64,000 nt of DNA from a virus (Duplodnaviria; Caudoviricetes): the IMG/VR virus record IMGVR_UViG_2974651877_000001, positions 49,761 to 113,760 of that record; one strand, given 5' to 3'. A model generated the notes under the pieces. The model had not been told where the DNA came from. It ran no database searches and saw nothing but the letters and a program-made list of their open reading frames with translations. The translations under genes were made by a program, and so were the position numbers. Positions 7,125 through 56,374 of the stretch are shown here, piece after piece (within the stretch, counting starts at the first letter, position 1; each line of letters begins with the position of its first letter).

Positions 7125-8249
7125 ATGAATTATATGTCACTAGACCTACAGATGGGGCCGCAGCAGGAGAGTAAGCTAGATACGCTTATTAGAACCTCTG
7201 CCAACATACTACAGGCTAAGCAGCCCCCAAAGGTTCCTTTAATACCTGTGTCTGAAAGACACCTACTAAACGCATATACACAAACTCTAAGAATAGAGGG
7301 TAACGTAAGTTCTTGGGCGGAGTATGTTGCTCAAGCCCCTGAACGTTTAGGTTCTAAATTCCCAGAACGAGTTAGGTTCTGGGCTAGTAAGAAAAGTAAT
7401 ATGCCAGCTTGTCCTTTCCTACTAGGACAGGAAGTGGTTTTACCGCTTTACTTCGACTCTATGAATACTATGACTGTGTTCTGTGTGTCAACCTTAAGCT
7501 ACGGAGAGATGCATCAAGGAGTAAGTTTTGATAGGCTTATCCCGTTATTTGATAGGCTCTTCTACTCTAGAGTCCTTAATAAGGTAGAAGTACCTCCAGT
7601 AGAAAGAAGCAACATTAGAAAAGCTGTATCCACACTGATGGACTCTATCAGTGATTGGGACAAGGTTCGTAAAGACGTAATACGCACTCTATCTTTAGAG
7701 CCGACTCCAGAAAATATCTGGGACACCCCTGATATATTCGTAAACAGCAACACTCACACTTTCAAAAATGTAACAGTTAAAGATAAACAGGACAATAAAA
7801 TGAGCAAGACAAAACGAATCGCAGAAAACATGGTAGAGAGCAACAAATCAGCAGCAAAAGATATTGCATTTTTGAACGCAGGTCGTACAGCCAATATGGT
7901 TATCAAAGCCGCAATGACTCCTCTGCTAAAAGCGGTGCTTAAACCAACTTTCATGCAGCGAGCCATGATGAAGCTAACAGGCACTACTGACCCAGTGGAA
8001 CGCTTTATGGAATCCCCAGTGTCTGACCTACTAGCTGCGGAAGGCTTTAAATTAGCCCTAGAGCTTAAAGGCGTTAAAGACGAAAAACTACAAGAAACCG
8101 CAGATAAAGCTATCGTGTACGCAGGTATGAAGGTCACAGAGAACATTCCTCTAGAAGACCTATTAGATGATGCTATCGAAAAAGTAGCGGAAGCGGTTTC
8201 TGGTAGCAATATGCTGGATAAACTAGCAGAGAAAACTCGTAGGTACTAA
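7125..8249 (+). CDS. hypothetical protein (possible internal start at 7800)
   Basis: 374-aa ORF; in-frame ATG 7800 preceded by AGGA. Confidence 0.75.
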   Translation: MNYMSLDLQMGPQQESKLDTLIRTSANILQAKQPPKVPLIPVSERHLLNAYTQTLRIEGNVSSWAEYVAQAPERLGSKFPERVRFWASKKSNMPACPFLLGQEVVLPLYFDSMNTMTVFCVSTLSYGEMHQGVSFDRLIPLFDRLFYSRVLNKVEVPPVERSNIRKAVSTLMDSISDWDKVRKDVIRTLSLEPTPENIWDTPDIFVNSNTHTFKNVTVKDKQDNKMSKTKRIAENMVESNKSAAKDIAFLNAGRTANMVIKAAMTPLLKAVLKPTFMQRAMMKLTGTTDPVERFMESPVSDLLAAEGFKLALELKGVKDEKLQETADKAIVYAGMKVTENIPLEDLLDDAIEKVAEAVSGSNMLDKLAEKTRRY

Positions 8250-43670: not shown

Positions 43671-44144
43671 ATGGCAAAAAATACAGGACTGAAACGTGAC
43701 GCCGTTAAGTACATACGAGACGGAATAAAATCACAGTACAAAAAGAAGGACTGCTGCGAGATTTGTGGAACTACAGAAGATATTGAGCTTCATCACTATC
43801 ATACAGTGGCTTTCGTATTAGAAAAGTATACCAAGGAGAAGGGGTTGGACCTCTCCAATGTAGATAAGATACTCGCTATGCGTGAGGAATTTTACAAAGA
43901 TAAATGGTATGAACTAGTCGAAGACACTGTATCTCTCTGTAACACTCATCACGTGTTGCTGCACAAAATCTACGGTCAGAAGCCTCTACTACACACTGCG
44001 GCAAAGCAGAGAAAGTGGGTAGAGAAGATGCATAATAAGGCTAACGGAATCGAAGACCTAACTGAAGAATCTACGGTTAGTTACGAAACTGCCCTAGGCA
44101 CTTTTGCGGTCAAGTCCAAGCCTTTAAGCAAGTTTTTGGTATAG
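43671..44144 (+). CDS. HNH-like nicking endonuclease (T5 gene between terL and portal)
   Basis: RDGIKSQYKK.DCCEICG..E..ELHHYHT and LC..HH..LH motifs. Confidence 0.82.
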   Translation: MAKNTGLKRDAVKYIRDGIKSQYKKKDCCEICGTTEDIELHHYHTVAFVLEKYTKEKGLDLSNVDKILAMREEFYKDKWYELVEDTVSLCNTHHVLLHKIYGQKPLLHTAAKQRKWVEKMHNKANGIEDLTEESTVSYETALGTFAVKSKPLSKFLV

Positions 44145-44146
44145 GT

Positions 44147-45355
44147 ATGGGTTTCTTTGATTGGATAAAGGAAAAAATAAACCCTGCACAGCCACAGATA
44201 CAGCGAAGAGAACCTTCAAGTAGTCGAAGCAATAGGCGTCCTACTACGGTACGTAACTCTTTCCGAGATATGGAGATAGTTAACCGTGGTGTTAACATGC
44301 TAATTGACTCCTGTGCAGAAGTAGACTTCGATGTCCAAAAGTCTCGTGGTTACACCACGTATGGCTCTGGCATCAAAGGGAAGACCTTAGACAGACTGCT
44401 GAACCAGCGCCCTAACCTATTCATGGACTCAAGTACCTTCTGGCGACTAGTTTACATGGATTTCTTACTAGAGGGCTGGGCATTCATTTACTACAATGAA
44501 GAAGAGCAGGCTATCTACCACCTTCCAGCAGCGAATATGGAAGTATACGCTGATAAAAAATATTATATTAACCATTTCTTATATGATGGACAAACTAAGT
44601 ACATGCCTAACGAGATTATCTTTATTAAGGATAACTCTTTCAACGGAGAAACCTCCCAGATATCGGGCTACCCTAGGATTCTATCAGCACTAAGTAGCAT
44701 CATCCGTAAGGACAAGTTGCAGCACTTCAAAGAGAAGTTCTTCGACAACGGAACAGTTATGGGTCTTATTATAGAAACCGAGCAGGTTCTAAATAAGCGT
44801 CTAAAAGATAGAGAGCGCGAAGAGATTCGCATCGACCATAACGTTAGAAATGGTAAATCAAACGTTCTTATCCTAGATGGGGGTAAGAAAGCTAAGTCCC
44901 TTAGCGCAACGAATTTAAAAGAGTTAGGTATCGAGGAAGACCTAGATAGGTTTGACAAAGAGATTTGTAAGGCATTAGGTATCCCACCAATCTTACTAGA
45001 GGGCGGGAACAACGCTAATATTAGACCTAATATTGACCTATTCTACTACCTGACTATTCTACCAATAGCTGAGAAGTTTGAAAAAGCTTTAGAGTTCTTC
45101 TTCGGTTTCGATATCAAACTAGACACCTCCGATATTGCAGCACTGACACCTGACCGAGAGAAGGAGTCCAATGAGCTTTCTTCTAAGGTTAATAATGGTA
45201 TCATCACAGGTAACGAAGCTCGTGAGAAGCTACGCCTAGAGCCTATCGATGACCCACTAATGGATAAGATTAGAATCCCTCAAAACGTAGCGGGTTCTGG
45301 TACTGGTGTTTCTGGTGAAGAGGGCGGAGCCCCTAAGAAAGAGGATAATAGCTAA
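44147..45355 (+). CDS. portal protein (pb7-like)
   Basis: LLNQRPN, FFDNG, ALGIPPILL and GIIT.NEARE.L.L.P motifs. Confidence 0.95.
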   Translation: MGFFDWIKEKINPAQPQIQRREPSSSRSNRRPTTVRNSFRDMEIVNRGVNMLIDSCAEVDFDVQKSRGYTTYGSGIKGKTLDRLLNQRPNLFMDSSTFWRLVYMDFLLEGWAFIYYNEEEQAIYHLPAANMEVYADKKYYINHFLYDGQTKYMPNEIIFIKDNSFNGETSQISGYPRILSALSSIIRKDKLQHFKEKFFDNGTVMGLIIETEQVLNKRLKDREREEIRIDHNVRNGKSNVLILDGGKKAKSLSATNLKELGIEEDLDRFDKEICKALGIPPILLEGGNNANIRPNIDLFYYLTILPIAEKFEKALEFFFGFDIKLDTSDIAALTPDREKESNELSSKVNNGIITGNEAREKLRLEPIDDPLMDKIRIPQNVAGSGTGVSGEEGGAPKKEDNS

Positions 45356-45609
45356 TGAACAAATCAATCCCTTTCGATAAAATCCAAGAAGTATTTGGGG
45401 ACTCACTCCCAACAAAAGCTCACTTTTACGCATATGTAGCACATCACGGTGTTACACAGCTTATGGTAGAGAAGGCCTATAATACGTGCTCAGTAAAAGC
45501 TTGGCACCTACTAGTGGCAGACTTCGAAGAATTTATCGAGAACAAAGAAGAACCTGTAGTTAAGGAGCCTGTCAAGACCGAATCGGTCGAGGAGGACTCC
45601 GATGAGTAA
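45355..45609 (+). CDS. head decoration protein, pb10 N-terminal domain only
   Basis: VFGDSLP...HFYAYVAHH resembles the T5 pb10 capsid-binding domain as recalled; same position. Confidence 0.65.
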   Translation: MNKSIPFDKIQEVFGDSLPTKAHFYAYVAHHGVTQLMVEKAYNTCSVKAWHLLVADFEEFIENKEEPVVKEPVKTESVEEDSDE

Positions 45610-46228
45610 CGTTCTAGACAAACGATGTGAAAAGTGGTTAAATTCCACTTTTGACGTTGTTAAGAAACAGAAGAACGAAGATGAAACCCGCTCTATTGTC
45701 ATCTCCGGGTACGCGAATACTACCAACGAAGACAGGGCAGGAGATATAATCCCAGCCGATGCATGGCTTAAGCCCAAGGCAATGGAAAACTACTTAAAGA
45801 ACCCTATAGTACTTTTCCAGCACGACCATGACGAGCCAATCGGTAAGATGCTAGATTACAAGGTAGACGAGAAGGGTCTATACGTAGAGATTGAAATCTA
45901 CGATGTAGACCAACGAGTTTTCCGTCTAGTGGATAAGGGTGCTCTTAAAGCATTCTCCGTAGGTTTCCGAATCTCCGACTACAGCTACGATGTCGACGAA
46001 GACATCTTTACAATTACAGAACTAGAGTTATTTGAAATCTCGGTGGTTTCAATCCCTTGCAACCAAGACTCATTATTTGAGGCTCAGAAATCTCTAGACT
46101 CCACATCATTCAAAGCTCTAAAAGAAGAAATCAGAGCAGAGAAAGGCTCTACCCCTAGCGTAGAACCGGTTTTTAACAGTGAACTTGAAAAGCTAGCGTA
46201 TGCGCTAGGATATTTTAAACAGGATTAA
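45602..46228 (+). CDS. prohead maturation protease (pb11-like)
   Basis: GYANT, DRAGD, NPIVL.QH, FSVGF and EISVVSIPCN motifs. Confidence 0.95.
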   Translation: MSNVLDKRCEKWLNSTFDVVKKQKNEDETRSIVISGYANTTNEDRAGDIIPADAWLKPKAMENYLKNPIVLFQHDHDEPIGKMLDYKVDEKGLYVEIEIYDVDQRVFRLVDKGALKAFSVGFRISDYSYDVDEDIFTITELELFEISVVSIPCNQDSLFEAQKSLDSTSFKALKEEIRAEKGSTPSVEPVFNSELEKLAYALGYFKQD

Positions 46229-46230
46229 TA

Positions 46231-47628
46231 ATGTCTACTACACCAAATATTGACATCAACAAACTTAAAGCTGAGCTTAAGAAAGACCTAGGCCTAGACG
46301 ACGTCGCGGACCTAGTAGCAGAGCAGAAGCGCCAAAAGCAACTAGACGAAGATAAGCGTCGTCAGGAAGCTGAAACGAAGCGCATGCAAGAACTAGTTGA
46401 CACCGCTACAGGCGAGATGAGTGAGAAATTCGAAAAAGCTCTACAACTTATCGACGCAATGGAAGAAGCAGCTAAGAAATCGGCTGAAGACTTCGCGGCT
46501 AAGCTAGAAGAAAACCAAGAAGTAGTTACAGAACTACAATCAGAAATTAAATCTCTACTAGCACGTCGTGACGGTAAAGATATCGTAGCTACAGCAGTTG
46601 GTAAAACAATTCGCAACGTAGAAGACCGTGACCAGCTAATGGAAGATGCTGCGTTCGTTAAGTCTATCATGGGTGTTGACTCTGTAGAAGACACTAAGTT
46701 CGGTGCAGAAGTTCATAAAGCAGTAAACGGTGCTTCTTCTATTCAAGTTTCTTCTGAAGACTACGAAACAGTATTCTCTAACCGTATCCTTCGTGACATT
46801 CAAAAGCGCCTAGTAGTTGGTAACCTGTTCACAGAACTACCAATGACTTCTAAGTTGCTAACAATGCAAATCGAAGCAGACCGCGACGCAGCAGGTGCAA
46901 CATGGGTTGACGCTGCTCAGTTCGGTACTGACAACTCTACTGGTGGCGAGCACACCACTGCACTTACTGACATTACGTTCAGTACGTACAAACTAGCATG
47001 TAAAGCTTACATGACTGACGAAACTACAGAAGATGCGATTACTCCTCTTCTAGGTATCATCCGTCGTCGTCTAATCGAAGCTCATGCAGAAGCTATCGAG
47101 AAGGCATTCCTTACAGGTACTGTTGCAGGTGCTCCAATCGGTCTAGTTAAGCTAGCTAACGATGACGGCAACGCAGTAACAACTGTAAACGGTGCAGATG
47201 CAGCAACTCTAGTTCCTGCTATCGACCTATTGAAGCTTCGTCGTAAACTAGGACGTAAGGGTACTCGTCTAAACGACTTGACTCTAATCGTTTCCCTAGA
47301 CGTTTACTACGACCTTATCGAAGACCCAGAGTGGCAAGATATGGACAAAGTAGGTAACGCTGCTGCTAAGCTACAAGGACAAGTTGGTCGTATCTACGGT
47401 CTAAACGTTGTTGTATCTGAGTACTTCCCTGCTAAAGCTGCTTCCGTAGCATGTGCGGTTCTAGTTTACACTCCAGACTTCATCGTACCACGTCAGCGTG
47501 ACGTAACGGTTGAATATGAGCGTATTCAGCGCCAACAAAAAGATGCTTACTACGTAACACAGCGTCTGAACCTACAACGTTACTTCTCTGGTGACAACGT
47601 AGCAGTTCTTAACTACGCTGCTGCTTAA
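46231..47628 (+). CDS. major capsid protein (pb8-like, HK97 fold with N-terminal scaffolding domain)
   Basis: About 160-aa coiled-coil delta domain, then KAVN..SS..VSSE.YET.FS.RI and GQVGRIYGL.VVVSEYFP. Confidence 0.96.
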   Translation: MSTTPNIDINKLKAELKKDLGLDDVADLVAEQKRQKQLDEDKRRQEAETKRMQELVDTATGEMSEKFEKALQLIDAMEEAAKKSAEDFAAKLEENQEVVTELQSEIKSLLARRDGKDIVATAVGKTIRNVEDRDQLMEDAAFVKSIMGVDSVEDTKFGAEVHKAVNGASSIQVSSEDYETVFSNRILRDIQKRLVVGNLFTELPMTSKLLTMQIEADRDAAGATWVDAAQFGTDNSTGGEHTTALTDITFSTYKLACKAYMTDETTEDAITPLLGIIRRRLIEAHAEAIEKAFLTGTVAGAPIGLVKLANDDGNAVTTVNGADAATLVPAIDLLKLRRKLGRKGTRLNDLTLIVSLDVYYDLIEDPEWQDMDKVGNAAAKLQGQVGRIYGLNVVVSEYFPAKAASVACAVLVYTPDFIVPRQRDVTVEYERIQRQQKDAYYVTQRLNLQRYFSGDNVAVLNYAAA

Positions 47629-47639
47629 GCGTAACACTG

Positions 47640-47674
47640 AAAGGGAGTAGGGCTAAGGCTCTACTCCCTTTTTT
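47640..47674 (+). terminator. terminator after the capsid gene
   Basis: AAAGGGAGTAGGGC-TAAG-GCTCTACTCCCTTTTTT. Confidence 0.9.
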
Positions 47675-49572: not shown

Positions 49573-50712
49573 ATGGCAGTTAAATTACTCCGTAATACCC
49601 GTCTGTGGGTAAGTACGGTTCTATCAGGTCACGACACAACCAATACTTGGGAAATCCAAGTACAGGACGACCTATCTTTTAACCAGAACCCTACGAGTTC
49701 TGATATTGAATTAGAAGAAGCAGGTGCAACACCTACACGTGGTTCCGCCCGCTTCAACGACGCACTAGAGCCAGCGGATTGGACATTCTCCACGTACATT
49801 CGTTCGTATTTAGTAGACCCAGATAGCACTCCGGACAGTGGCGACGAGTATCAGTTTACTCCTGATGCACTTCTATGGCACTCCCTAGCTTCTGGCTCTC
49901 CATTCGACGTTACTAGTGCAGCAGGTGTTCATTCTAACCCTGTTAACATGCTTCTAGACTTTAAAGATTCTCAACACCACGAACTATTGAAGTTCCACGT
50001 TTACATGAATGTAGACGGTGCATGGTACGTTATTGAGAACTGTCAAGTAGGTGAAGCAACAATCTCAAACGATATTGATGGTATTGGTTCTACTACATGG
50101 ACTGGACAAGGTACTTTACTATCTGAGCTACCTTCGCAACCATTTGACCCAGCAAACGTTCTTTCTGTAGACTGTAACTTACAAGCTTCTTACATCCGTA
50201 ACAAGCTGACAGTCCTACGAGTTACTGATAACAGAAACTCTAACACAGCTTACGACATTGCTATCACTGGTGGTTCTATTACATTTACCAACAACATCAC
50301 GTTCCTAACTCCTAGTACCCTTAGCTGTTTAGACGTTCCTATCGGTTCGTACACTGGGTCTCTATCTATTACAGGTGAGATGACAGCATACCTAGACGAC
50401 AAGACTAACGGGTCTAAGAAGCTACTAGCGGACATGTTGCAACAAAAATCCGTAACATCTAGCTTTGAGATTGCAGTAATTATGGGTGGTGTGGCTAGCT
50501 CCGGTACAGCTCCAGCAGCGGTTATCGTTCTACCAACAGCTCACCTAGACGTACCTAGTATCGAATCCGCTGATGTTATCAGTACCAGTCTATCCTTTAA
50601 GGGTATTCCTACTGACTTCTCAGCAGGGGACGAAGCCTTCCTAGGTTTCTCTGACCGATTCACTAGTGCAGAAATCGACCGTCTGATTAATACTGGAGAC
50701 GGTGAAGCTTAA
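49573..50712 (+). CDS. major tail tube protein (pb6-like, no C-terminal Ig domain)
   Basis: LLRNTR..VSTV, EI.VQDD.SF.Q, PTRGS.RFND.L and SYI.NKLT motifs. Confidence 0.93.
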   Translation: MAVKLLRNTRLWVSTVLSGHDTTNTWEIQVQDDLSFNQNPTSSDIELEEAGATPTRGSARFNDALEPADWTFSTYIRSYLVDPDSTPDSGDEYQFTPDALLWHSLASGSPFDVTSAAGVHSNPVNMLLDFKDSQHHELLKFHVYMNVDGAWYVIENCQVGEATISNDIDGIGSTTWTGQGTLLSELPSQPFDPANVLSVDCNLQASYIRNKLTVLRVTDNRNSNTAYDIAITGGSITFTNNITFLTPSTLSCLDVPIGSYTGSLSITGEMTAYLDDKTNGSKKLLADMLQQKSVTSSFEIAVIMGGVASSGTAPAAVIVLPTAHLDVPSIESADVISTSLSFKGIPTDFSAGDEAFLGFSDRFTSAEIDRLINTGDGEA

Positions 50713-50723
50713 TAGGAGTTAAA

Positions 50724-51593
50724 GTGGCCAGCAGACAACTTTTAAGAAACGCCCTAGTGGTTATAGTCTACGAAGGCCGCTCTTACACTTACCAAGCAGC
50801 TTCCTCAATAAGTCTGGAGACCTCCTTTACGGAGGTCTCTGGTCGTAGGAAGACTTTATTTAAGAAAGTAGCCAAGAAATACTCTATCATTTCCGAAAAG
50901 GCATCAACTACTGTACAAGTGGACTTAGTTGCTACAGACGGGAGAACTGAGGAGCTACTATTCAAGCTTATAGGTCTTTCAGAAGGTCCCTTACATCGAC
51001 TTCCTGATTCTATTCCAGTAAGTCCTGAATACTTCGATGTGTACCTAACAAATACTGAAGTAACTATTAAGTTATCTCCATGTTTCTTAGAGACCATAGA
51101 CGTGTTTATGAGTAAGGATTCTCCTTTAGGTATAGGCACTGTGTTTAACGCCGCGAGCTTCGAGTACGTCGATGAGATGCCACAGCTGGAAACCAACCCA
51201 CAAGGACTACCGCTACCCCTAACACCTATATATCTGGGTTTTGGTGAGAAGATATTTAACAATGTGGTAAACGCATCCTTCAGCATACAGCAAGTAGCCG
51301 ACTGGCGACAAGATAAATCTTTATTTACCCCTGGAATTTACTCTAGAGGTAATGCAATACTAGAAGACTTAATAGTATCAGCTACTATAACAACAAACCT
51401 AGATACTAACGGCTTCTTTACTGAACCAACTATAGGGGATTTCTACGTTAAGCAGAATACTCTGTCTTTGAGTATAGACTCCGCGTCTATTATACCTAGA
51501 AACACTATAGGAACTGTTTATCAAAATAACTTGGACGTATCCCCAGTAGAAGAATCTGGAGACGTCATTATTCAATATGGAGAAAAACGATGA
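50724..51593 (+). CDS. baseplate tube/minor tail protein (p140-like)
   Basis: Synteny; VVI.YEGR.Y and RKTLF motifs. Confidence 0.8.
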   Translation: MASRQLLRNALVVIVYEGRSYTYQAASSISLETSFTEVSGRRKTLFKKVAKKYSIISEKASTTVQVDLVATDGRTEELLFKLIGLSEGPLHRLPDSIPVSPEYFDVYLTNTEVTIKLSPCFLETIDVFMSKDSPLGIGTVFNAASFEYVDEMPQLETNPQGLPLPLTPIYLGFGEKIFNNVVNASFSIQQVADWRQDKSLFTPGIYSRGNAILEDLIVSATITTNLDTNGFFTEPTIGDFYVKQNTLSLSIDSASIIPRNTIGTVYQNNLDVSPVEESGDVIIQYGEKR

Positions 51594-51997
51594 GCCTTAA
51601 TTTAGCTAACATCATCCTAGACACAAAAACTATGACTTTCGACCACCCAGAATTCGAAGGTCTAACAATTACTCTAACTTACAACTCCAAGTCTCGCCTA
51701 AGTGAGCTACGTAAGAGTTGTTTAGAGACAAAATACGACCCATCTGTTGGCGCACCAATTCAAAAACTTAATATCGAGAAGTGGAATGAGGTGTTCTGCA
51801 AAGAGGTTATCTCCACATGGAGCGGCTTCAAATACAAGTATCTAGCACAGATGCTACTAATCAATGAGTCAGCCGTGGAGCTAGAGGACGAGCTAGAGTT
51901 CACTGTTGAGAACGCTACCACTCTTCTTACGCAAAGTAACACATTCGACAGCTGGGTTAATAGCTGTTTAGCTGACCTTAACAACTTTCGAGGCTAA
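51590..51997 (+). CDS. tail assembly chaperone
   Basis: Position before the tape measure gene; ends ..L.NFR; probable frameshift partner downstream. Confidence 0.8.
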   Translation: MSLNLANIILDTKTMTFDHPEFEGLTITLTYNSKSRLSELRKSCLETKYDPSVGAPIQKLNIEKWNEVFCKEVISTWSGFKYKYLAQMLLINESAVELEDELEFTVENATTLLTQSNTFDSWVNSCLADLNNFRG

Positions 51998-52010: not shown

Positions 52011-52382
52011 GTGTTTAAGGAGCTAGATAAGCTCCTTAAAACCCAACAAGGTCTAACTAAAGAAAAATACTACATGATATGTGAGCAGTTGGGGCAGGAA
52101 CCCGACCCTAACAAGGTGCCTAAGGACCTGTCAGACATGCCACATGTCGTTCAAATTGCTAATATCATTTACAAATCCCTATCCGACGTATTTATACCTC
52201 TCGGAATGACAGGCTCCATATTCGGAGGGAAGGACTACTCTGCCCTCCCAGTGTTCTTCGATATATATGAAGTAAGGAGCCCTAGGGACAAAGAGTTAGT
52301 GACAGATATCATATTACATATGGAAAAGAAAGCTATAGAACAGGCGGTGGCGGAACGAAAACGCAACGCTAGTAAGAAATAA
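52011..52382 (+). CDS. tail assembly chaperone, C-terminal (frameshift) part
   Basis: TKE.Y..ICE.LG.EPDP and GKDY motifs; weak RBS; frame open back to 51972. Confidence 0.75.
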   Translation: MFKELDKLLKTQQGLTKEKYYMICEQLGQEPDPNKVPKDLSDMPHVVQIANIIYKSLSDVFIPLGMTGSIFGGKDYSALPVFFDIYEVRSPRDKELVTDIILHMEKKAIEQAVAERKRNASKK

Positions 52383-52434
52383 TTCTTTTCTCCATCTTAG
52401 CCCCCACGGGGGCAATTTTTTAAAGGAAACATAA

Positions 52435-53208
52435 ATGTCAACTTCATTTAAGAATATGACCCCGGAAGCTAAGCGAGCATATATTCAAAAGGATATCACG
52501 GATGCTCTAGACGAAAGTCTTGAGAACACCCGTAAAGCAGCTCTAAATCAGATGACCCTGATTTCTCAAATCATGCAAGATGTAGAGTTAGAGTCAGGTA
52601 GAGTGCTGCACCCATACACAGACCTTCCTGTTGCAGGGCAGACGTCTTTTGTTGTTCAAGGACTCTCAATCACTAAGACTCAGACAGTAGCTGTGGTAGA
52701 CTTAGCTGATGAAACTATTGAAGACATGAACCCTATGGTAGGTCCTCGTGATTGTCTAACCACTTTGCTAGGTCAAGTACTGGCTAAAGACATGGAGAAG
52801 AACTTCGTAGACGCTGTTAGAGCCGACGCAACTATTCCAGCTGCTCCCGGCGGAGCAGCTACCTGGGCAGGTTTAAAAGCAATTATTGCAGATATGGGTC
52901 CTAACGTGTTTAATACCGTAGGACCAATTATCTTCGCCGTTAGCTTAACTGACTACCTAGACCTTATTAGTACAGATGCCCTTAGCGACGCCAAGGACTT
53001 CTTAGATAAGAAAATTCGAATTGTAACCTCTGAGCATTTAGCAGCGGGTGAAGTACTGGCCTACCACACTCACGGAGTAGCTGGAGGGTTCACGCCACTA
53101 ACTATCGGATTCGAAAGGGAAGGCGGAAAACAAAACACTGCACTAATCGGCGGTTATAGTTACGGGTACGCTTGGGATACTAAATACATCCGATTCGTAA
53201 CGGCTTAA
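52435..53208 (+). CDS. HK97-fold capsid-like protein lacking a scaffolding domain
   Basis: Collinear motif similarity to the MCP in this window (see findings); AAGGA RBS. Confidence 0.7.
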   Translation: MSTSFKNMTPEAKRAYIQKDITDALDESLENTRKAALNQMTLISQIMQDVELESGRVLHPYTDLPVAGQTSFVVQGLSITKTQTVAVVDLADETIEDMNPMVGPRDCLTTLLGQVLAKDMEKNFVDAVRADATIPAAPGGAATWAGLKAIIADMGPNVFNTVGPIIFAVSLTDYLDLISTDALSDAKDFLDKKIRIVTSEHLAAGEVLAYHTHGVAGGFTPLTIGFEREGGKQNTALIGGYSYGYAWDTKYIRFVTA

Positions 53209-53215
53209 TTATATT

Positions 53216-53239
53216 AGCGGCCTTAGTGCCGCTATTTTT
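53216..53239 (+). terminator. terminator after the capsid-like gene
   Basis: TAGCGGC-CTTAGT-GCCGCTATTTTT. Confidence 0.75.
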
Positions 53240-53250
53240 ATAGGTAAAAT

Positions 53251-56200
53251 ATGGCAGATAACAAATCAGTACAGGAATTGATGATTCAGGTACGCAGACG
53301 TGGTATAAAGCCCGCCACTAAAGAGGTAGAGGCTTTAAGTGAAGCATTGAATGATGCTGCTATATTCACGGATGACCTTAATAAAAGCCTCTCCAGCATA
53401 AAAGTTCCTGCGTCCATGACTTCCCTAACAGGCTCTTTCGAGAAGTTCAACGATGTACTAGAGTATATAGAATCGAACACTTTTAAAGCCTCCGAAACCT
53501 TAGACGCTGTACTAGACCAGCTAGGCGAGAACGCAGACGCTGCACGTGCAGATATCTTGGGGTTATCCGAAGAAGTGCAAGACCTTAACAGGAACTCCGT
53601 AGCAACCGGCAATGCAGTTCAGAAACTAGATACCAATGTTAGAGGTGTTGGCGAGTCTTTCGAGCAAACAGAGGGGCAAGCTAGACGTGTAAATAACCGA
53701 TTAAAGGACATTAATAGACAGGGTACTAACTCAGTTAGGACTTTCTCTGATATGGCCAGGTCTTCTAACTCTATTGTAAACGCTTACGCGCTAGTTGCTG
53801 CTAACGTCTTCGCGGTCACAGAAGCATTTAGACTACTTAACGAGGCAGCCAGCGTAGACCGCCTAGAAGAGGTCTCCGCAGTTATGTCAGGACAGTTAGG
53901 TATTTCCATCATCGGGGTGGCAGAAGCATTGCAAGAAGCTACTGACGGTGCTGTGAGCTACCAAGCAGCCCTTAGACAAGCAGCATCCGCTACAGCATTC
54001 GGCTTCGATACTCAAACTATTTCAGAGTTCGCCACAGTAGCTAGACGTGCTTCTATCGTTCTAGGTGTGGAAATGACCGACGCACTTAACCGTGTGGTAC
54101 GTGGTGTATCAAAAGCGGAAGTGGAACTATTAGACGAACTAGGTATTACTGTTCGACTAAATGAAGCGTTCGCTCAGTACGCAGCAGAACATAACATTGC
54201 AGCTAATAGCCTAAACTCGTTCCAGAGACAACAAGCTTTGGCTAACGAAGTGATACGTAAATCCGAGCAGAACTTAGGTGCGGTAGACTCTAGGTTAGAA
54301 TCTACAGCTTGGGAGAAGTTCGGAGCTAACGTGTCTGGAGCTACTAACAGGTTACTACGCTTAATCTCTACTAATGACATTGTTATTGGTACACTGAACG
54401 AAATCAATGGTGTATTTGAAGCTATTGATAGGTGGGGTCGTGAAGGAGCTGACTCTCTACCAGTAATTGATACACTAAAAGAGGCAAGAGTATCTCCTGG
54501 CTTCATTGACGACATGCTAGCACTGAATGGGCTACTGGAAGAGCAAGAGAAACTAGATAAGCGACTACGTAAAGCTGCTCGTGCAGCCAATAATGCTGCC
54601 CCTGGGCAGGTAGGACCTCTAGAGGATGAAGTACGCGCTCTTAAAGCTGAATACTTACTAGCAACCAGGGCAGTAAACGAGTTTACTGAGTCTATGGGTA
54701 CTAGTAAAGACACCGTTAAGGCTATCGCTCCGGAGATTCAAAACTTAACTACCCTAAGCAGAAGTCTTTCTGGCGGTATCACGGGAATCATTAATGACCT
54801 GACTCCAGAGAAGGGAACGTATGCTGGATTGGCTAACGAAGCGAAGGAAGCCCAAAGGTCTGTAAACCTACTAACTGAGGCGGGAATCTCCCAAAGAGAA
54901 GCCTTAGAGCGACTAAAAATAACTTCCGAGCAATTCTACAAGCTAGATGCAATTCAGGCTTACGCCAAGATTCAAGAGAATCAGACCAAAGAGATGCAAA
55001 AGCAAGAAATGCTTGCAAGGGAGTTGGACGGACTTACAAGCTTCGATGAGGCAGTATTAGTCGCAGAGCAACAGTTAGAAGCTCAAAGAAAAATCAATGA
55101 TGCTGCTACAGCAGTGTTAGGCATCAAAGAAAAAACCACTCAAATGGTTTACGATGAGTGGGTTCTAGAGCAGAAACTAAACGCAGCTCAGGCCAAGTCT
55201 ATTCAGAACAGCTATGAAAAGCTAAGAATCCAGTCCGAATTCGAGAATAGAAACCAAAGTACATTCAGAGAACCTCTGGACTCTACAACAACCCTGCAAA
55301 GAGAACTTAGTCTAGAGATGTCAATCCTAGAGACCATGCAGCGCCAAGAGTTTATCTCCAAGGCGGAAGTAGAGGCTCAGAAGGAAAGAACTAAGGAGCT
55401 AGAGAGACAGTTAATTATCTCCCGCGAGGAGAACTCTAGACGTCTACGTCAGGACAACCAACAGGGAGTTGATAGTACAGTAGCTACTCTAAGCCCTGAA
55501 ATCTCTGACATACAAGGTCAAGTACTTGCGGCAGCAGACGCGTGGGAAGTCTATGGTCAGTCAGCTAAATCAGCAGGGGACTTAGCAGCCGCCTCTGCAA
55601 CTACTACAGCATCCGCATTGAACAGTATATCTAGTGTAATACAGATGGCTGGGCAGGCAGCAGTTGGTAGTATAGATGCAGAGATTGCAGCCCTACAGTC
55701 TAAGGAAAACCTAAGTGAAGCAGAAGAGAAGAAGCTAAAAGAACTGAACAAGAAGAAGATAAAGGAGCAGGAGAAGTACGCTAAGTCTACTATCCTAATC
55801 CAGACAGCAGCAGGTATTGCGTATGCTTTAGGTAGCGCTCCACCTCCGCTAAGCTTCATTAACGCAGGTCTTGTGGCTGTTGCAGGTGCTATGGCATACC
55901 AACAAGCTTCTAACTCAGCAGCTTCTCAGTTAGCAGCTCTTGGTAACTCTACTAACGAAGGTGCCGACCCAACTTCTCTGAAAGTGGGGGAAGCCAACGA
56001 TATGAAAGTGGATGTAAGCTCTTCTGCCTCCGCAGCGGAACGAGCAGAGTCTCTAGGTGACCGTGGTTTCTATGGACGTGCGTCTTCTGGTAATATGTAC
56101 AAGGATAAGTCCTACTTAGTAGGTGAGACAGGTACAGAGGTAGTCACCCCTAAAGTGGATTCAGTGATTACCCCTACAGCTGAGGAAAATGAGAAATCAG

Positions 56201-56343
56201 CAGGAGCTATGGGTAGAGCCCCTACAATCTTACAGATTGAGGCGTTAGACGCAGCATCTATCCTAGATAGGGCTGATGAAATCATTGAGGCGTTAGAAGA
56301 AGGGGCCAACCAGAGTGGTAGGTCTATTGTTCGAGACGCTTAG
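53251..56343 (+). CDS. tape measure protein (pb2-like)
   Basis: YA..AANVFA, DALNRV.RGVSK.E.ELLDELG.T.RL, long coiled coils, hydrophobic C-terminal segment, VGE.G.EV. Confidence 0.93.
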   Translation: MADNKSVQELMIQVRRRGIKPATKEVEALSEALNDAAIFTDDLNKSLSSIKVPASMTSLTGSFEKFNDVLEYIESNTFKASETLDAVLDQLGENADAARADILGLSEEVQDLNRNSVATGNAVQKLDTNVRGVGESFEQTEGQARRVNNRLKDINRQGTNSVRTFSDMARSSNSIVNAYALVAANVFAVTEAFRLLNEAASVDRLEEVSAVMSGQLGISIIGVAEALQEATDGAVSYQAALRQAASATAFGFDTQTISEFATVARRASIVLGVEMTDALNRVVRGVSKAEVELLDELGITVRLNEAFAQYAAEHNIAANSLNSFQRQQALANEVIRKSEQNLGAVDSRLESTAWEKFGANVSGATNRLLRLISTNDIVIGTLNEINGVFEAIDRWGREGADSLPVIDTLKEARVSPGFIDDMLALNGLLEEQEKLDKRLRKAARAANNAAPGQVGPLEDEVRALKAEYLLATRAVNEFTESMGTSKDTVKAIAPEIQNLTTLSRSLSGGITGIINDLTPEKGTYAGLANEAKEAQRSVNLLTEAGISQREALERLKITSEQFYKLDAIQAYAKIQENQTKEMQKQEMLARELDGLTSFDEAVLVAEQQLEAQRKINDAATAVLGIKEKTTQMVYDEWVLEQKLNAAQAKSIQNSYEKLRIQSEFENRNQSTFREPLDSTTTLQRELSLEMSILETMQRQEFISKAEVEAQKERTKELERQLIISREENSRRLRQDNQQGVDSTVATLSPEISDIQGQVLAAADAWEVYGQSAKSAGDLAAASATTTASALNSISSVIQMAGQAAVGSIDAEIAALQSKENLSEAEEKKLKELNKKKIKEQEKYAKSTILIQTAAGIAYALGSAPPPLSFINAGLVAVAGAMAYQQASNSAASQLAALGNSTNEGADPTSLKVGEANDMKVDVSSSASAAERAESLGDRGFYGRASSGNMYKDKSYLVGETGTEVVTPKVDSVITPTAEENEKSAGAMGRAPTILQIEALDAASILDRADEIIEALEEGANQSGRSIVRDA

Positions 56344-56345
56344 TA

Positions 56346-56374
56346 AGAACCCGCCTTTGTGCGGGTTTCTTTTT
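56346..56374 (+). terminator. Rho-independent terminator
   Basis: AACCCGC-CTTTGT-GCGGGTTTCTTTTT. Confidence 0.8.

Follow-up and report, generated by a model that had tools for sequence, protein, structure and literature searches.

A second gene with a predicted capsid-protein fold among the tail genes of T5-like Vibrio phages

The vertex subunit gp24 of phage T4 is the model of a dedicated penton protein, and its gene lies beside that of the major capsid protein (MCP). Here we describe an open reading frame (ORF) of a T5-like Vibrio phage whose 257-residue product is predicted to be, as gp24 is in T4, a second HK97-fold paralogue of the phage's own MCP in one genome. The ORF was found in a stretch of 64,000 nucleotides (the window), which covers positions 49,761 to 113,760 of IMG/VR record IMGVR_UViG_2974651877_000001, a virus record of 113,760 bp with direct terminal repeats. 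The late genes of the window follow the T5-like order (Table 1). In contrast to the gp24 gene, the ORF is part of the tail operon, between the tail assembly chaperone genes and the tape measure gene.

Two further kinds of capsid-type protein invite comparison. The capsid-protein homologue Ccm joins the shell made of helper MCP as pentamers, and occupies the pentamers of SaPIbov5 procapsids according to the excerpt of PMC8569155 consulted, which is proof that the vertices of a head can be taken by a second protein of the HK97 fold. However, Ccm is encoded by a satellite and alters the size and shape of the capsid, whereas in each of the six Vibrio phages inspected the ORF is part of the late operon of the phage itself, and the Vibrio phage records, of 111–128 kb, come close to the 121,750 bp of T5. 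The family 1 encapsulins (for example M. xanthus EncA and the P. furiosus virus-like particle, 2e0z) had no detected sequence kinship with the ORF. They are encoded in cellular genomes, with an adjacent cargo gene or with cargo fused to a targeting peptide, whereas the ORF has no cargo gene nearby and is in the late operon of a virulent phage.

The closest comparison is with pb8, the MCP of T5 and DT57C (PDB 5tjt, 8zvi and 8ho3), the sole outside family found by sequence profiles. The HK97 fold of pb8 is the one predicted for the ORF, and the two share the motifs TDETxED, VSxxxYxxL and ExxR. Compared with mature pb8, the ORF product is smaller by about 45 residues and has a reduced A-domain; the delta domain is missing. 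It also differs from pb8 in falling below the Pfam Phage_capsid threshold, in being encoded in the tail module, and in carrying a family-specific HxHGVAGG motif.

Predicted fold and kinship to T5-type capsid proteins

A search of 1.84 billion representative proteins returned 31 relatives of the ORF at E ≤ 1e-3. The alignment used below (A1) has 32 rows, which comprise 29 relatives, the ORF itself, P0002 and P0003; the repetitive sequence P0026 was omitted. AlphaFold2 (AF2) run on A1 gave a model with a pLDDT of 90.2 and a pTM of 0.86, consisting of N-terminal helices, a β-hairpin at about residues 56–91, a helix of 27 residues (104–130) and a C-terminal sheet. Foldseek matched the model to 342 PDB chains at E ≤ 1e-3, and the matches listed were capsid proteins of tailed phages, including DT57C and T5, and encapsulins. 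A fold search of BFVD gave the same picture. The predicted structure is thus that of a complete HK97-fold protein, with N-arm helices, an E-loop hairpin, a spine helix, and P- and A-domains.

A reading of the window made from the sequence alone (the sequence-only reading) had proposed that this is a second HK97-fold gene without a scaffold. Both of the checks set for that proposal beforehand, on the predicted structure and on profile alignment to the MCP, came out in its favour, the first with the HK97 fold just described and the second with a similarity that is modest but specific. The absence of a delta domain of about 160 residues was also borne out. The processed T5 pb8 chain (5tjt_A) corresponds to residues 164–463 of the window's own MCP, and the ORF matches the mature part only. 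At 257 aa, the ORF is without the N-terminal delta domain, removed by the prohead protease, by which a T5-type MCP is recognised; the mature MCP begins near residue 164. One structural detail of the sequence-only reading had to be given up, namely a shortened E-loop: the hairpin of the model has about 36 residues, compared to 39 (residues 206–244) in T5 pb8, as given in the part of PMC11313276 consulted. It is instead the A-domain that is shortened in the ORF, and the hhalign alignment has its gaps in that region. Its predicted product is therefore best described as a mature capsid protein minus the delta scaffold of about 160 aa, with a smaller A-domain.

Profiles were required to detect the relationship to the MCP by sequence. 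In a BLASTP comparison of the ORF with the window's own MCP the best match was not significant (E = 2.0), and a phmmer search of the PDB with the single ORF sequence gave one chance match (E = 1.2). When A1 was compared by hhalign with three MCPs of Vibrio T5-like phages, residues 84–240 of the ORF aligned collinearly with residues 255–443 of the MCPs (E = 2.2e-4 for a single comparison, probability 44.8%). All five motif pairs on which the sequence-only reading had based a collinear similarity to the phage's own MCP were reproduced in this alignment. A search of 177,635 distinct PDB sequences with the A1 profile placed the MCPs of T5 and DT57C in the top three positions (E 0.001–0.005), and the sole further match at E ≤ 10 was an integrin (E = 0.22).

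A hidden Markov model (HMM) of the core columns of A1 behaved similarly. At control loci it found all eight orthologues, and the next matches were MCP ORFs only, with scores of 24.8 bits for the MCP of TrudiGerster, 22.4 bits for that of DU_PP_V and 12.5 bits for the window's own MCP. Among 927 ORFs from 80 other loci there were only three matches at E ≤ 10, and each was the ORF next after a protease match, which is the position of the MCP gene in T5-like phages. By these profile comparisons, the similarity between the ORF and the MCP is weak but specific, and collinear, and the nearest detectable relatives of the ORF are T5-type MCPs.

The gene has so far gone without a functional name. Its product has 98.8% identity to its counterpart in Vibrio phage vB_ValS_X1 (Demerecviridae, Pogseptimavirus), a hypothetical protein, and 100% identity to that in Vibrio phage VspSw_1, which is listed as uncharacterised. 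In every record looked at, the gene is annotated as hypothetical. The PHROG profile phrog_15693, which has no assigned function, matches residues 21–255 of the ORF (3.1e-19) and all 32 members of A1. No Pfam family matched the ORF at E ≤ 1. The gathering threshold of PF05065 (Phage_capsid) was not reached, and only 1 of the 32 family members touches this profile at all (E = 0.081). The HxHGVAGG motif, at residues 209–216, has no counterpart in the MCP; in A1, H211 is near-invariant and G214 is invariant. A description of the gene was not found in the full-text literature, supplements unread, so that virion proteome tables could still list the protein. The excerpts of PMC7012835, on the apparently not T5-like phage Seahorse, and of PMC12014285 have no relevance to the ORF.

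Distribution and genomic slot

The gene is widespread in, and confined to, Vibrio phages in the tblastn searches made. The ORF as query matched 341 phage records, all from Vibrio, and the N-terminal part of the relative P0012 matched 352, again all from Vibrio. For comparison, the tail gene p140 was found in 890 records, 352 of them from Vibrio phages and most of the others from phages of Salmonella, Escherichia and Klebsiella; whether the two sets of 352 are the same records was not checked. In the six Vibrio T5-like phages inspected (X1, 70E37-4, Ceto, JSF12, VCPH and D254) the order is always chaperone, ORF, tape measure. The frame is intact in all six gene maps, at 23–32% identity, and on this ground we rejected a non-functional relic. 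Among 80 IMG/VR loci with T5-like proteases (927 ORFs of at least 100 aa) no family member was found; only 15 of these loci reach at least 8.5 kb past the protease, and the presence of a T5-like tail module in them was not checked.

One of the inspected records shows an irregularity in a neighbouring tail gene. In Ceto (7197–8040), the p140-like gene is annotated with only 318 bp, and its 5′ end is overlapped by an opposite-strand ORF, annotated as 1,4-dihydroxy-6-naphthoate synthase, which takes up the space expected for the remainder of the gene. The short p140 is probably an annotation artefact, because close relatives have a full-length gene.

The enteric T5-like phages differ at this slot. 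In TrudiGerster and DU_PP_V it is empty, and in T5 it holds T5.141, an annotated endonuclease of 249 aa (NC_005859, 20778–21530, minus strand), which follows an annotated putative terminator and abuts pb2. We considered whether T5.141, which has a similar length, could be a hidden homologue, and ruled this out by its Pfam content, a CapR domain and a treble-clef zinc finger. The earlier statement that T5 has no such gene here is thus right for a capsid-like gene, although the slot itself is occupied by an unrelated one. As T5 has an endonuclease gene in the same place, the chaperone–tape measure junction resembles a hot spot of insertion in Demerecviridae.

The ORF had also been described as an inserted cassette bounded by hairpins. 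Two terminator-like hairpins with T-runs do flank it in the window, one with five G-C pairs and one with seven pairs. The hairpin and T-run after the chaperone gene, however, are present in 6/6 Vibrio loci and also in both enteric loci without the ORF (2/2), so the upstream hairpin is an old junction terminator rather than a cassette border. The downstream hairpin occurs in four of the six Vibrio loci; Ceto and JSF12 lack it, and their ORFs end just 15 and 12 nt, respectively, ahead of the tape measure gene. What remains of the cassette idea is the hot-spot character of the slot; against it, the gene is fixed there in 6/6 Vibrio phages. It appears that the gene entered a permissive slot in an ancestor of the Vibrio T5-like phages and has been retained since.

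The ORF is the most diverged of the 11 structural-module genes compared. It is 32, 28 and 23% identical to its counterparts in 70E37-4, Ceto and JSF12, compared to 63, 54 and 55% for the MCP.

Fused and extended relatives and the possible role of the protein

Relatives with additional domains hint at where the protein may act. Three of them, P0029, P0035 and P0036 (386–397 aa, on Logan contigs of 16.6, 4.1 and 6.4 kb), join a Peptidase_S78 prohead protease domain to an ORF-type domain. Their capsid-like parts are 50–56% identical to each other, and in its protease part P0029 has about 66% identity to proteases of Vibrio T5-like phages. Fusion of protease and capsid protein, as in clusters with Peptidase_S78 and Phage_capsid, is a known layout of true capsid proteins, and that of the three relatives is exactly alike, with the ORF-type domain as the capsid part. 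The window protein differs from such fusions in being unfused, and its phage has separate protease and MCP genes. The fused proteins could be the capsid proteins of small phages or satellites related to the Vibrio T5-like phages.

A second type of relative is extended at the C-terminus. P0012 (717 aa, on a 111.7-kb contig) carries an extension of about 460 residues with a Laminin_G_3 domain by Pfam, and P0011 and P0008 have shorter extensions. Free-standing homologues of the P0012 extension are found on IMG/VR contigs of an unrelated phage group, as conserved proteins of about 350–490 aa with no named PHROG function. They are encoded directly after the major head protein gene (phrog_247) in six of the seven loci that have upstream flank (L007, L008, L009, L011, L016 and, with an HNH gene interposed, L017). 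The seventh, L015, has a different arrangement, and another five loci lack upstream flank and are outside this count. The place after the major head protein gene is the usual slot for head decoration genes, so the extension of P0012 points to the head, and its free-standing homologues are probably head decoration or head fibre proteins. AF2 on a free-standing homologue (A6) gave a pLDDT of only 42.1, and we make no claim about its fold beyond Laminin_G_3.

Searches for the genomic context of these relatives added little. In IMG/VR, P0029 and alignment A3 gave protease matches only and alignment A4 gave nothing. A3 had no match in genome contigs, and the one match of A4 in metagenome contigs, 36 residues long, was regarded as chance. 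A search for further extended forms of the family found none, which is weak evidence.

Together, the two fusion types would place the ORF-type domain in a capsid shell, with its N-terminus inside and its C-terminus outside; the protease fusion is what puts the N-terminus inside the procapsid. We therefore favour, tentatively, the reading that the ORF product is a minor, surface-exposed capsid subunit, most likely of the vertex type. The fusion partners favour this option over a decoy or a nanocompartment, and the fixed synteny in the late operon (6/6 loci), typical of structural genes, also counts for a capsid subunit, as do the profile kinship to T5-type MCPs and the presence of the gene in 341–352 Vibrio phage records. 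On this reading, the protein would be made late and, because the ORF is behind two terminators, at a lower level than the MCP and with a low copy number. It would co-assemble into the head as a minor, outward-facing subunit of the shell, likeliest at the fivefold vertices in the manner of T4 gp24 or Ccm, and in some lineages the ORF-type domain would serve as the base for lectin-type surface modules.

Several observations weigh against a minor capsid subunit. In T5 all 11 pentons are built of pb8 and, by the account in the part of PMC11313276 consulted, T5 itself needs no protein of the gp24 type; for the ORF, such penton occupancy is a proposal. The Vibrio MCP is a close homologue of the pb8 type (E = 1e-139 to the MCP of DT57C), and a separate vertex protein is not obviously needed. 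The location of the ORF, among tail genes and away from the MCP gene, also counts against the reading, and fusions and extensions are features of relatives and not of the window protein. Finally, the fastest divergence among the genes compared is more in keeping with a protein in an arms race than with an integral subunit of the shell, and an insertion hot spot suits a moron-type accessory gene.

The last two of these points belong equally to the best of the rival readings, in which the product is a non-virion, moron-type accessory protein whose capsid fold engages something that recognises capsid proteins. It might act as a decoy or blocker of capsid-sensing host immunity, or as a dominant-negative subunit that spoils the capsids of competing phages or of satellites. 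In favour of such a role are the slot, which is empty in two enteric T5-like phages and taken in T5 by an unrelated mobile endonuclease, the rapid evolution of the gene and its lack of a scaffold domain of its own. Its distribution fits less well: counter-defence genes are usually patchy, whereas this one has a fixed locus in all six Vibrio T5-like phages inspected and 341–352 Vibrio phage records by tblastn. A 460-aa lectin-type extension, as in P0012, or a fusion to the prohead protease, as in the P0029 group, is also ill-suited to a cytoplasmic decoy. We know of no precedent for a capsid decoy, though no literature search was aimed at the idea. On balance we regard an accessory role as a serious alternative, but an unlikely one.

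A more elaborate version of this idea seems to us less likely again. The protein might never enter the virion and instead form free capsomers or small empty shells late in infection, as a capsid mimic that soaks up host capsid sensors or poisons the assembly of satellites that steal T5-type heads. The protease-fused relatives would then be the minimal, self-scaffolding capsid genes of such satellites and the source from which the phage gene was captured.

The position of the gene suggests a different role, in the tail. The protein could act with the tape measure protein or the chaperones in tail assembly, or be a low-copy component of the tail; its place between the chaperone and tape measure genes is conserved, and the gaps of 15 and 12 nt to the tape measure start in Ceto and JSF12 would allow coupled expression. 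We consider this improbable, since the matches listed in both fold searches are shells of capsid or encapsulin type or entries related to these, enteric T5-like phages make the same tail without the ORF, and the extension module of P0012 points to the head; moreover, we know of no tail protein with an HK97 fold. Self-assembly into a small shell of its own, of encapsulin or T=1 type, inside the infected cell but apart from the virion, is the least probable of the readings considered, as the ORF adjoins chaperone and tape measure genes and no cargo-type gene, the two terminators ahead of it suggest low expression, its sequence kinship is to T5-type MCPs and not to encapsulins, and the differences of less than 1 in Z between fold comparisons are ties.

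Late-gene map and implications

The features of the late region are collected in Table 1. Seven genes (three for head–tail joining and four for the tail) and 4.8 kb separate the capsid-like ORF from the MCP gene upstream of it. The ORF starts with ATG, and a Shine-Dalgarno-like AAGGAAA, read directly from the sequence, precedes this codon by 5 nt. The ribosome-binding site had been called strong; the motif is indeed there, and we grade it fair, not exceptional. The window MCP, besides its similarity to the MCP of DT57C, matches processed T5 pb8 with E = 6.6e-110.

Table 1. Late-region features of the window, in window coordinates
Feature	Position	Strand	Basis or remark
157-aa ORF	43671–44144	+	between terminase large subunit and portal genes
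84-aa ORF	45355–45609	+	between portal and protease genes
Prohead protease gene	45602–46228		Peptidase_S78, 6.9e-24 (Pfam)
Major capsid protein (MCP) gene, 465 aa, with delta domain	46231–47628	+	Phage_capsid, 6.1e-16 (Pfam)
Hairpin after MCP gene	47639–47672	+	15 pairs
Adaptor, Neck1 and tail terminator genes			downstream of MCP gene in late-gene order
Tail tube and p140-like baseplate tube protein genes			after tail terminator in late-gene order
Tail assembly chaperone ORF, first	51590–51997	+	phrog_313, 8.9e-8
Tail assembly chaperone ORF, second	52011–52382	+	phrog_3914, 3.1e-28
Terminator-like hairpin with T-run, after chaperone gene	52400–52421 (stem-loop 52400–52413)	+	5 G-C pairs
Shine-Dalgarno-like AAGGAAA	52423–52429	+	5 nt ahead of ATG
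Predicted HK97-fold capsid-protein paralogue, 257 aa, without delta domain	52435–53208	+	phrog_15693
Terminator-like hairpin with T-run, between ORF and tape measure gene	53215–53241 (stem-loop 53215–53234)	+	7 pairs
Tape measure protein gene	53251–56343	+	so annotated in vB_ValS_X1, whose counterpart of the capsid-like ORF is 98.8% identical
Hairpin after tape measure gene	56347–56368	+	8 pairs
Distal tail protein gene			after tape measure gene

Strong terminator-like hairpins are also present after the MCP gene and after the tape measure gene. Taken with the pair that flanks the ORF, these suggest that the late operon is attenuated in steps along its length.

Two small ORFs near the head genes were noted in passing. 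Between the portal and protease genes the window has an ORF of 84 aa, in the place that pb10, a decoration protein of 160 aa, takes in enteric T5-like phages. The first 27 residues of the ORF match the pb10-like protein of TrudiGerster (41% identity, E = 1e-5) and the Ig-like half is absent, so that the Vibrio phages may keep only the capsid-binding helix domain of pb10 (domain layout from the part of PMC11313276 consulted). Between the terminase large subunit and portal genes, a 157-aa ORF has, by its translation, Cys/His motifs like those of HNH endonucleases; an endonuclease gene is found at the corresponding place in T5.

T5 serves as a model of large siphovirus heads, in which one protein makes up the shell. 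A second capsid-fold gene, fixed in every Vibrio T5-like phage inspected, means that either these phages depart from that model in their heads or the capsid fold has acquired a new use. A vertex or surface subunit would be a natural site for the display of add-on domains, to judge by the lectin-bearing relatives, and a mimic would represent a new kind of counter-defence. As for the protease-fused relatives, they may be signs of a group of small capsid-forming elements, so far unseen, with links to these phages.
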